DNA from: Escherichia coli | GTDB lineage: Bacteria; Pseudomonadota; Gammaproteobacteria; Enterobacterales; Enterobacteriaceae | Assembly (NCBI RefSeq): GCF_044647545.1 | Contig: NZ_CP172818.1 | Strand: one strand, 5' to 3' | DNA: 64,000 bases | In this document: piece after piece, positions 12,418 to 50,958 of the stretch | How the letters are laid out: every line of letters begins with the position of its first letter | Position numbering within the stretch: the first letter of the stretch is position 1 | Notes under the pieces: generated by a model | Told to the model about the DNA's origin: nothing | The model's input: the letters and a program-made list of their open reading frames with translations, nothing else | The model's database searches: none | Made by a program: the position numbers and the translations under genes

Positions 12418-12954
12418 ATGCGTCGCGCTAACGATCCGCAACGGCGAGAAAAAATTATCCAGGCCACGCTGGAGGCGGTGAAACTTTATGGAATACATGC
12501 TGTTACACACCGCAAAATTGCTACCCTTGCCGGGGTACCGTTGGGATCGATGACTTACTATTTTTCAGGAATTGATGAGTTGTTGCTGGAGGCGTTCAGC
12601 CGTTTTACTGAGATCATGTCCCGGCAATATCAGGCATTTTTTAGCGATGTTAGTGATGCTCCGGGCGCATGCCAGGCTATCACCGATATGATCTACAGCT
12701 CACAGGTTGCAACGCCGGATAACATGGAGCTGATGTACCAGCTCTACGCGCTGGCTAGCCGAAAACCGCTATTAAAAACGGTAATGCAAAACTGGATGCA
12801 GCGCAGTCAGCAAACGCTCGAACAATGGTTTGAACCCGGAACCGCCCGCGCGCTTGATGCGTTTATTGAGGGGATGACGCTGCATTTTGTCACCGACCGT
12901 AAGCCGCTATCGCGCGAGGAGATTTTGAGGATGGTTGAGAGGGTTGCAGGGTAG
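12418..12954 (+). CDS. rcdA: TetR-family regulator RcdA (YbjK)
   Basis: 178 aa from ATG 12418 ([13 protein letters not shown]...), N-terminal TetR HTH. Confidence 0.9.
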
Positions 12955-12973
12955 TAGATAAATTTCAGGCAAC

Positions 12974-13052
12974 AAAAAACCCACCAACCTTGAACCGAAA
13001 TGGCGGGGTTGATGGGCTCCACAAAATGGGGACATCAAAGAAAAGCAGTGGC
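12974..13052 (-). ncRNA. rybB: sigmaE-dependent small RNA RybB
   Basis: Minus-strand sequence GCCACTGCTTTTCTTTGATGTCCCCATTTTGTGGAGCCCATCAACCCCGCCATTTCGGTTCAAGGTTGGTGGGTTTTTT matches RybB as recalled, with 3' terminator hairpin and U-run; rcdA-ybjL intergenic location. Confidence 0.85.
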
Positions 13053-13128
13053 ACTAATTAAGACTGATGCCCTGCGGAAAAGTTCTGCGGTTGTGCAAAA
13101 AAATTTCATTTTCAGGGCAACTTCAGTT

Positions 13129-14814
13129 TTATCCTAATCCTGGCCATACCATGACGATGATTGTCCCTGCTAGCGTCAGCAGGACGTTGGCGATTGCATA
13201 GGTGCCCGCATAGCCCAGCGCCGGGATGTTACTGCGAGCTGTATCACTGATGATCTCCATTGCCGGCGCGCAGGTGCGTGCGCCCATCATTGCGCCGAAC
13301 AACAGTGCGCGGTTCATTCGCAATACATAAGCACCGAACAAGAAGCAGATAACCACTGGCACCAGACTGACAATCAATCCGGCAATCAACATTTGACCGC
13401 CAATCGCGCCCAGGCCGTTATTAATACCGCTACCGGCGCTCAGACCAACGCCTGCCATAAACACCATCAAGCCGAACTCTTTCACCATGCTTAATGCACC
13501 TTGCGGAATGTAACCGAAGGTCGGGTGGTTAGCACGCATAAAGCCCAGCATAATTCCGGCGAATAACAACCCGGCAGCGTTCCCCATGCCGAAACTGAAT
13601 GTGCTGAACTGGAAGGTGATCATCCCGATCATCAGCCCAATAACAAAGAAGGCGCAGAATGCCAGCAAGTCAGTGACCTGGCTGTGAATCGAGATAAAGC
13701 CGATGCGATCGGCGATGGTTTTTACGCGACGGGCATCGCCGCTGACTTGTAAAACGTCACCTTTGTTAAGCACGACGTTGTCATCAATCGGCATCTCAAT
13801 CTGGCTACGAATGACGCGGTTAAGGAAGCAACCGTGATCGGTCAACTTCAGTTGTGCGAGACGTTTGCCTACAGCGTTATGGTTTTTAACGACCACTTCT
13901 TCAGTGACGATACGCATGTCGAGAAGGTCACGATCGAAAACTTCTTTGCCATTACGGAAACTGGGATCGAGTCGGGCGTGGGCGTCGGGGTAGCCTACCA
14001 ACGCTATTTCATCGCCCATTTGTAGCACGGCATCACCGTCTGGATTTGCCAGAATCCCGTTACGCCGAATACGTTCAATGTAACAGCCAGTTTGTCGATA
14101 AATACCCAGTTCACGCAGATTTTTGCCGTCGGTCCAGGCCACCAGCTCCGGGCCGACGCGGTAGGCGCGGATCACCGGTAAATAAACCTTACGGTTGGCA
14201 TCAGTGTCCAGGCCACGTTCGCGGGCGATTTGCTGGGCGCTGGTCTGTAAGTCCTGATGCTGCAATTTCGGCAAGTAACGCGCACCAACAATCAAACTCA
14301 CCAGACCGATTAAATAGGTTAAGGCATATCCGAGGCTCAGATTATCCAGCGCCAGTGAGAGCTGCCTGCTTTCCATACCGGAATGACGCAGTGTATCGCC
14401 AGCACCGACCAAAACCGGTGTTGACGTCATAGAGCCTGCTAACATACCGGCCGTCAGGCCAATATCCCAGCCAAACAGCTTACCTAACCCTAAGGCGATG
14501 ACCAGCGCACTGCCAACCATCACCAGTGCTAACATTAGGTAATTTTTCCCATCGCGAAAAAAAATGGAAAAAAAGTTCGGTCCGGCTTCGACCCCGACGC
14601 AGAAAATAAACAGCATAAAGCCAAGATTAAGCGCGTCGGTGTTAATGCTGAAATGTTGTTGGCCTAATAACAGCGATACGACTAAAACGCCAATGGAATT
14701 ACCCAGTTGGATCGAACCAAGTCGTAATTTCCCGAGACATAGCCCAAGCGCGAGGACCACAAATAATAACAGAATGTAATTCCCATTTAACAATTCGGCG
14801 ACGTTTATATTCAC
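13129..14814 (-). CDS. ybjL: Putative transporter YbjL (AAE family, two TrkA-C domains)
   Basis: 561 aa multi-TM ORF; matches YbjL. Confidence 0.9.
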
Positions 14815-50738: not shown

Positions 50739-50826
50739 GTTCACTGCCGTACAGGCAGCTTAGAAATTCACTGGTAACATACTCCACCCGCCCACCATGT
50801 TCACTGCCGTACAGGCAGATAAAATG
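50739..50826 (+). CRISPR. Vestigial type I-F CRISPR array: 2 repeats (second degenerate at 3' end), 1 spacer of 32 bp; no cas genes nearby
   Basis: Repeat 1 at 50739-50766 GTTCACTGCCGTACAGGCAGCTTAGAAA (the I-F / Ypest-type repeat); spacer 50767-50798; repeat 2 at 50799-50826 GTTCACTGCCGTACAGGCAGataaaatg; AT-rich leader upstream; clpA-infA location is the known I-F CRISPR site in E. coli. Confidence 0.85.
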
Positions 50827-50870: not shown

Positions 50871-50958
50871 TGGCGGTGAGGGGGGGATTCGAACCCCCGA
50901 TACGTTGCCGTATACACACTTTCCAGGCGTGCTCCTTCAGCCACTCGGACACCTCACC
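50871..50958 (-). tRNA. serW: tRNA-Ser (anticodon GGA)
   Basis: Minus-strand 88-nt sequence GGTGAGGTGTCCGAGTGGCTGAAGGAGCACGCCTGGAAAGTG...GGGGTTCGAATCCCCCCCTCACCGCCA with cloverleaf features, long variable arm, 3' CCA. Confidence 0.93.

Follow-up and report, generated by a model that had tools for sequence, protein, structure and literature searches.

The rybB gene and its predicted sigma-E promoter in the rcdA-ybjL spacer of Escherichia coli

RybB has a central part in the response to envelope stress that sigma-E directs. Near-perfect sigma-E boxes are conserved upstream of rybB, promoter activity is near background in a delta-rpoE strain, and the RNA accelerates the decay of omp mRNAs; sigma-E activity is higher when RybB is lost, which completes a feedback loop (PMC1804206). 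The rybB promoter is also among the sigma-E promoters that have been assayed, where it was active and was called a strong competitor for polymerase, and UP elements in the form of A/T tracts contribute strongly to the strength of sigma-E promoters (PMC3326320). Target recognition has been assigned to nucleotides 1-16 of RybB (references listed in PMC4911921), Hfq binds the U-tail of class I sRNAs (PMC4911921), and a conserved seed-pairing domain directs sRNA-mediated envelope-stress resistance in enterobacteria (PMC6694218). In addition, rybB is an integration hotspot, one used by Felsduovirus prophages only (PMC10121019).

The window analyzed here is a 64-kb (64,000-nt) stretch of an E. coli chromosome, in which a spacer appearing empty on the open reading frame track separates rcdA from ybjL. 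A sequence-only reading had proposed that this spacer holds, on the minus strand, the 79-nt RNA RybB preceded by a pair of boxes resembling a sigma-E -35 and -10, and had labeled it a known element. We compared the locus with the Rfam model, with the curated gene of E. coli K-12 MG1655 and with orthologous loci across the Enterobacterales.

Identity and setting of the gene

The minus strand from 13052 (the +1 G) down to 12974 (the last U) reads GCCACTGCTTTTCTTTGATGTCCCCATTTTGTGGAGCCCATCAACCCCGCCATTTCGGTTCAAGGTTGGTGGGTTTTTT, a 79-nt sequence whose 3' end consists, as had been described, of a hairpin followed by six T residues. When the whole window was scanned with Rfam 15 at gathering thresholds, this sequence matched RF00110 (RybB) with a score of 104.1 bits against a gathering score of 40 (E = 2.5e-20), untruncated and over model positions 1-79 of 79. 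The coordinates of the Rfam match, 12971-13049 on the minus strand, are shifted by 3 nt at both ends because the model begins at nucleotide 4 of the RNA and extends 3 nt beyond the U-tract. In MG1655, the curated record places rybB (b4417) at 887979-888057 on the minus strand, as a 79-nt ncRNA flanked by rcdA and ybjL. When aligned with MG1655, the window was identical from the ybjL stop codon through the promoter and the RNA, bar a single mismatch, A69G (window position 12984), which leaves the seed untouched and the terminator unbroken. A 117-nt query comprising the promoter and the RNA was recovered from 5418 of the 5426 complete E. coli genomes, with at least 99% identity in 5260 of them. 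The identification of the RNA as RybB, and its description as a known element, were thus both borne out.

The setting is also that of MG1655, the gene lying between rcdA (ybjK) and ybjL on the ybjL strand; the same context is found in Salmonella (PMC1804206). The rcdA gene, for a TetR-family regulator, occupies 12418..12954 on the plus strand. It was recognized as an open reading frame and takes its name from RefSeq, at a site 100% identical over 301 nt spanning the spacer; against NCBIfam, the reading frame gave TetR-family matches only, none of which was an equivalog above cutoff. It is convergent with rybB, and 19 nt separate its stop codon from the RybB 3' end. The ybjL gene (13129..14814, minus strand; aspartate:alanine antiporter family) was identified by the NCBIfam equivalog NF003440 at 1178 bits over residues 1-561 of 561, with which the annotation concurs. 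It lies upstream of rybB on the same strand, its stop codon 76 nt from rybB. The reading frame ends at 12954 (plus) and 13129 (minus) delimit a spacer of 174 bp (12955..13128), the size that had been reported, and this spacer is accounted for by rybB and its promoter.

In the automated RefSeq (PGAP) E. coli records that were inspected, no feature is placed over rybB; the curated MG1655 record alone marks the ncRNA. A scan based on open reading frames or on such annotation would therefore miss the gene. The importance of this observation is a matter of bookkeeping only, in that rybB explains a spacer that is empty on the open reading frame track; an intact copy is expected in any E. coli, and its presence opens no new question. 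RybB here is intact and ordinary, in its usual locus, as a common intraspecific allele of a gene that is already known.

Promoter footprint and RNA structure

The promoter string quoted in the sequence-only reading, gcaGAACTTttccgcagggcatcaGTCTtaa, is found exactly at 13088..13058 on the minus strand. In order to examine its conservation, RybB nucleotides 1-20 were used as a search pattern against one genome per species, which returned at least 120 loci; the genera among the matches listed include Escherichia, Salmonella, Citrobacter, Klebsiella, Enterobacter, Kluyvera, Serratia, Yersinia, Hafnia, Proteus, Providencia, Xenorhabdus and others. The 116 loci of other Enterobacterales genomes that had enough flanking sequence yielded 115 distinct sequences, which were anchored gap-free on the RNA start, and information was computed for each position.

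Conserved upstream positions formed three blocks only, nearly all others being close to random. The putative -35 element, GAACTTT (13079..13085, minus strand; -33..-27), was 98-100% conserved at each position. The putative sigma-E-type -10 element, AGTCTTAA (13058..13065, minus strand; -13..-6), begins with an AGTC block at -13..-10 that was 93-100% conserved, with G-12, T-11 and C-10 invariant and A-13 at 93%; A-7 and A-6 followed at 100% and 95%. Closer to the start, T-4, A-3 and T-1 were conserved in 93-100% of the sequences. The spacer between the boxes (-25..-14) carried only 0.07-0.64 bits per position, against 1.9-2.0 bits in the boxes. The remaining block is an A/T tract, AAATTTTTTT (13097..13106, minus strand; -54..-45), in which a run of A and then a run of T stand at a fixed distance from the start, with T at -48..-46 in 84-90% of the sequences; it is a candidate UP element. 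At each strongly conserved promoter position the window has the consensus base. Further upstream the flanks are unrelated, and in many taxa (Serratia, Yersinia, Xenorhabdus) they are unlike the end of ybjL. Judged by this conservation, the three blocks form the footprint of a sigma-E promoter and its UP element, the latter being the probable function of the A/T tract.

The boxes themselves fit published descriptions of such promoters, namely a GGAACTT-type -35 and a GTCAAA-like -10 about 6 nt before the start, both conserved around a spacer that is free to vary. At -34..-26 the window reads aGAACTTTT, one mismatch from the GGAACTTTT consensus (PMC1804206), the first G being A here. At -12..-7 it reads GTCTTA, two mismatches from GTCAAA (PMC1804206), both at positions that also vary among the orthologues. 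The 14 nt from GAACTTT to the G of GTCT are equivalent to 16 nt when counted from GAACTT to TCT, and the start G (+1, 13052) falls 6 nt after the A at -7. The resemblance to a sigma-E promoter is accordingly supported both by the phylogenetic footprint and by the published experiments on orthologous promoters (PMC1804206, PMC3326320). Sigma-E dependence of rybB in this strain would be expected from the identity of the whole promoter to that of MG1655.

The occurrence of the motif, taken by itself, is weaker evidence. In the 64 kb there was a single match, which was exact, but with one mismatch allowed 0.72 matches are expected by chance, no rarer than chance for a window of this size; the promoter call rests instead on position and conservation. 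A generic consensus scan detected no sigma-70-like promoter ahead of rybB, consistent with a promoter of the sigma-E type. The generic terminator scan permits loops of 3-8 nt only, and the RybB terminator, whose outer stem encloses a 17-nt loop, was missed by it; the plus-strand match that it gave at 12935-12964 is no more than chance would give, with 2 found against 3.5 expected.

The position of rybB, on the same strand as ybjL and 76 nt beyond its stop codon, allows another reading, in which the hairpin and U-tract serve ybjL as its intrinsic terminator and the RNA of about 80 nt is a processed fragment of the ybjL 3'-UTR, with no gene of its own. Nothing resembling a terminator was detected by the consensus scan from the ybjL stop codon to the rybB promoter (13053-13128), and the RybB terminator therefore probably ends ybjL transcripts too, which would read through the rybB promoter to reach it. 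Such double duty is compatible with an independent rybB gene. Against a pure 3'-UTR fragment, the -35 and -10 boxes keep a constant distance from the RNA start without any gap, whereas the stretches that separate and precede them are nearly random; both the boxes and the RNA are retained in Serratia, Yersinia, Xenorhabdus, Proteus and Providencia, in which the flanks are unlike the end of ybjL; and published rybB promoter fusions are sigma-E dependent (PMC1804206). We rejected this reading, which we regard as very unlikely, on the grounds that the promoter boxes are kept where the upstream flank is unrelated.

A long GC-rich stem followed by a U-tract at the 3' end was found, as in other members of the family: the Rho-independent terminator hairpin (nucleotides 35-75; 12978..13018, minus strand) comprises a 12-pair outer stem and a 3-pair inner stem in both the minimum-free-energy fold and the Rfam consensus structure, and the U6 tract (nucleotides 74-79; 12974..12979, minus strand) that forms its tail is near-invariant across species. 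Folded alone, the hairpin has a predicted energy of -21.8 kcal/mol (z = -4.4), which none of 200 shuffled sequences equaled. To assess covariation, 57 distinct RybB sequences were aligned and pairs were counted on the structure predicted for the window RNA. In the terminator stem, 7 of the 12 pairs were changed on both sides, with compensatory changes such as A-U to G-C and C-G to U-A, and 96.9% of cells were paired. Over the entire structure, the observed covariation was not reached in any of 500 column shuffles, and pairing fell from 95.5% to 20-48% when the partner was slid by 1-3 columns.

At the extreme 5' end stands the target-recognition region, or seed, GCCACUGCUUUUCUUU (nucleotides 1-16; 13037..13052, minus strand), which is identical to that of MG1655. 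It is the same in all retrieved orthologues, but by design of the search, since nucleotides 1-20 were the search pattern and their invariance across species was forced; it is not taken as evidence. Nucleotides 21-25, which lie outside the pattern, are likewise invariant. The minimum-free-energy fold contains a 5' helix between nucleotides 2-5 and 31-34, which was not accepted as conserved; it showed no compensatory change, and its A-U pair was broken in 20 of the 57 sequences. For these reasons the 5' end is treated as single-stranded, and the broken helix is consistent with the free 5' end expected of a seed.

That the spacer instead encodes a small protein is very unlikely and was rejected on the pattern of indels and covariation: overlapping reading frames do exist mechanically (12907-13038, minus strand, 43 aa; 12807-13022, minus strand, 71 aa; 13000-13137, plus strand, 45 aa), but two of the three start with TTG or GTG and one runs antisense through rcdA, the variation tracks base-pair covariation and not codon periodicity, and the orthologous RNAs, 77-83 nt long, differ in the loop and linker by indels of 1 and 2 nt that would shift any frame.

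No evidence contradicting the RybB explanation was found. Together these data establish, at the level of sequence, the identity of the RNA, an intact seed and terminator, covariation in the terminator and a footprint of promoter boxes at a fixed distance from the start. The spacer is almost certainly the gene for RybB, a 79-nt Hfq-dependent sRNA, with a sigma-E promoter of its own.

Variation and a prophage attachment site at the 3' end

The one difference from MG1655 within the RNA, G69 in place of A (12984, minus strand), falls on the 3' side of the terminator stem and was recognized by alignment with both MG1655 and E. coli B. It converts the U41-A69 pair to a U41-G69 wobble; the predicted fold is unchanged, with an energy of -21.8 compared with -22.4 kcal/mol, so that G69 is predicted to weaken the terminator slightly, by 0.6 kcal/mol. 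In order to count the allele, a 41-nt query was built such that every 28-nt exact word must include the G. It was present in 738 of the 5426 complete E. coli genomes and is therefore a common natural allele; G69 was absent from the loci of other species among the matches listed.

The same end of the gene coincides with the attachment core of P2-like (Felsduovirus) prophages (ATGGGTTTTTTGTTGCCTGAAATTTAT, its first two bases being GT in the window), which maps to 12958..12984 on the minus strand by means of the duplication at the prophage junctions of E. coli B. The core overlaps the last 11 nt of RybB and continues for about 16 nt beyond; in the window it is empty. In E. coli B (NZ_CP115178.1, locus L124, 9068-33400), a P2-like prophage of about 24 kb sits between rcdA and rybB, with genes for an integrase, CI, a replication endonuclease, tail proteins, ogr, and a retron St85-family reverse transcriptase and effector, and about 27 nt are imperfectly duplicated at its two junctions. 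Among the 5422 E. coli genomes that have the 301-nt site spanning the spacer, it is split in 219.

Compared with MG1655, four substitutions were observed within 9 nt (12962-12970) immediately beyond the RybB 3' end; there the window reads GTTGCCTGAAATT and MG1655 reads GTTATCTAAAACT. The sequence around this cluster, which sits inside the attachment core, is otherwise identical, and G69 is found at the core's inner edge. The version of the flank found in the window is that of the rybB-proximal junction of E. coli B, and it is also that of E. albertii and E. whittamii. Past P2-like (Felsduovirus) phage traffic may have left its footprint at the 3' end of rybB, although we consider this improbable; the same flank in E. 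albertii and E. whittamii makes simple ancestry a more economical explanation than a phage scar. Were such a footprint real, variants of the attachment core could alter which phages integrate or, slightly, the termination and stability of RybB.

Elsewhere in the window, a minimal type I-F CRISPR array was observed at 50739-50826 on the plus strand, consisting of two repeats (GTTCACTGCCGTACAGGCAG...) placed 60 nt apart around one 32-nt spacer. The first repeat scores 50.1 bits with the Rfam model CRISPR-DR4, and the second is degenerate at its 3' end. This remnant adjoins a tRNA-Ser gene (50874-50958, minus strand), and for a 601-nt stretch containing it the best full-length matches in complete E. 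coli genomes are just 96.5% identical.

Proposed mechanism and comparison with known systems

By orthology, the transcription start, sigma-E dependence and Hfq binding would be expected to apply in this strain, and the following sequence of events can be proposed. As unfolded outer-membrane proteins build up, sigma-E would be freed from RseA, and RNA polymerase carrying sigma-E would read the GAACTTT (-35) and GTCTTAA (-10) boxes, aided by the A/T tract, to begin at the G at 13052; transcription would stop at the 12-pair hairpin and U6, at 12974. The unstructured 5' end would then pair with many omp and other envelope mRNAs and, with Hfq on the 3' U-tail, this pairing would block translation and hasten mRNA decay. 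With less porin made, sigma-E activity would be damped, a feedback. By analogy with class I sRNAs, the U6 tract would be the contact for the proximal face of Hfq. The literature is the source for the dependence on sigma-E, the binding of Hfq, the set of targets and the feedback loop, all of which would carry over to this copy. None of the RybB targets known to us is encoded in this chromosomal region.

Among described systems, the closest is RybB of E. coli K-12 MG1655 (b4417; RF00110), with which the window shares the 79-nt length, the flanking genes and their orientation, and an identical promoter, seed, linker and loop; one base of the RNA differs (A69G), and the four substitutions lie 4-12 nt beyond the 3' end (12970, 12969, 12966 and 12962). 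RybB of Salmonella enterica is the best studied experimentally (PMC1804206). The Salmonella RNA retrieved here is the same as that of MG1655 and differs from the window at nucleotide 69 only; its gene has the same promoter architecture, with a -10 of GTCATA compared with GTCTTA in the window. Target sets of RybB are partly species-specific, ompD in Salmonella being an example.

More distant are the sRNAs MicA and MicL (PMC1804206, PMC4102768), which share with RybB the logic of a sigma-E promoter, dependence on Hfq, and relief of envelope stress through the repression of mRNAs for abundant outer-membrane proteins. They are, however, unrelated to RybB in sequence and are encoded at other loci, micA between luxS and gshA and micL inside cutC, with different seeds and targets. 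MicV and VrrA of Vibrio (PMC6694218) are functional analogues of RybB; they fall outside RF00110 and are not homologous to it over their whole length.
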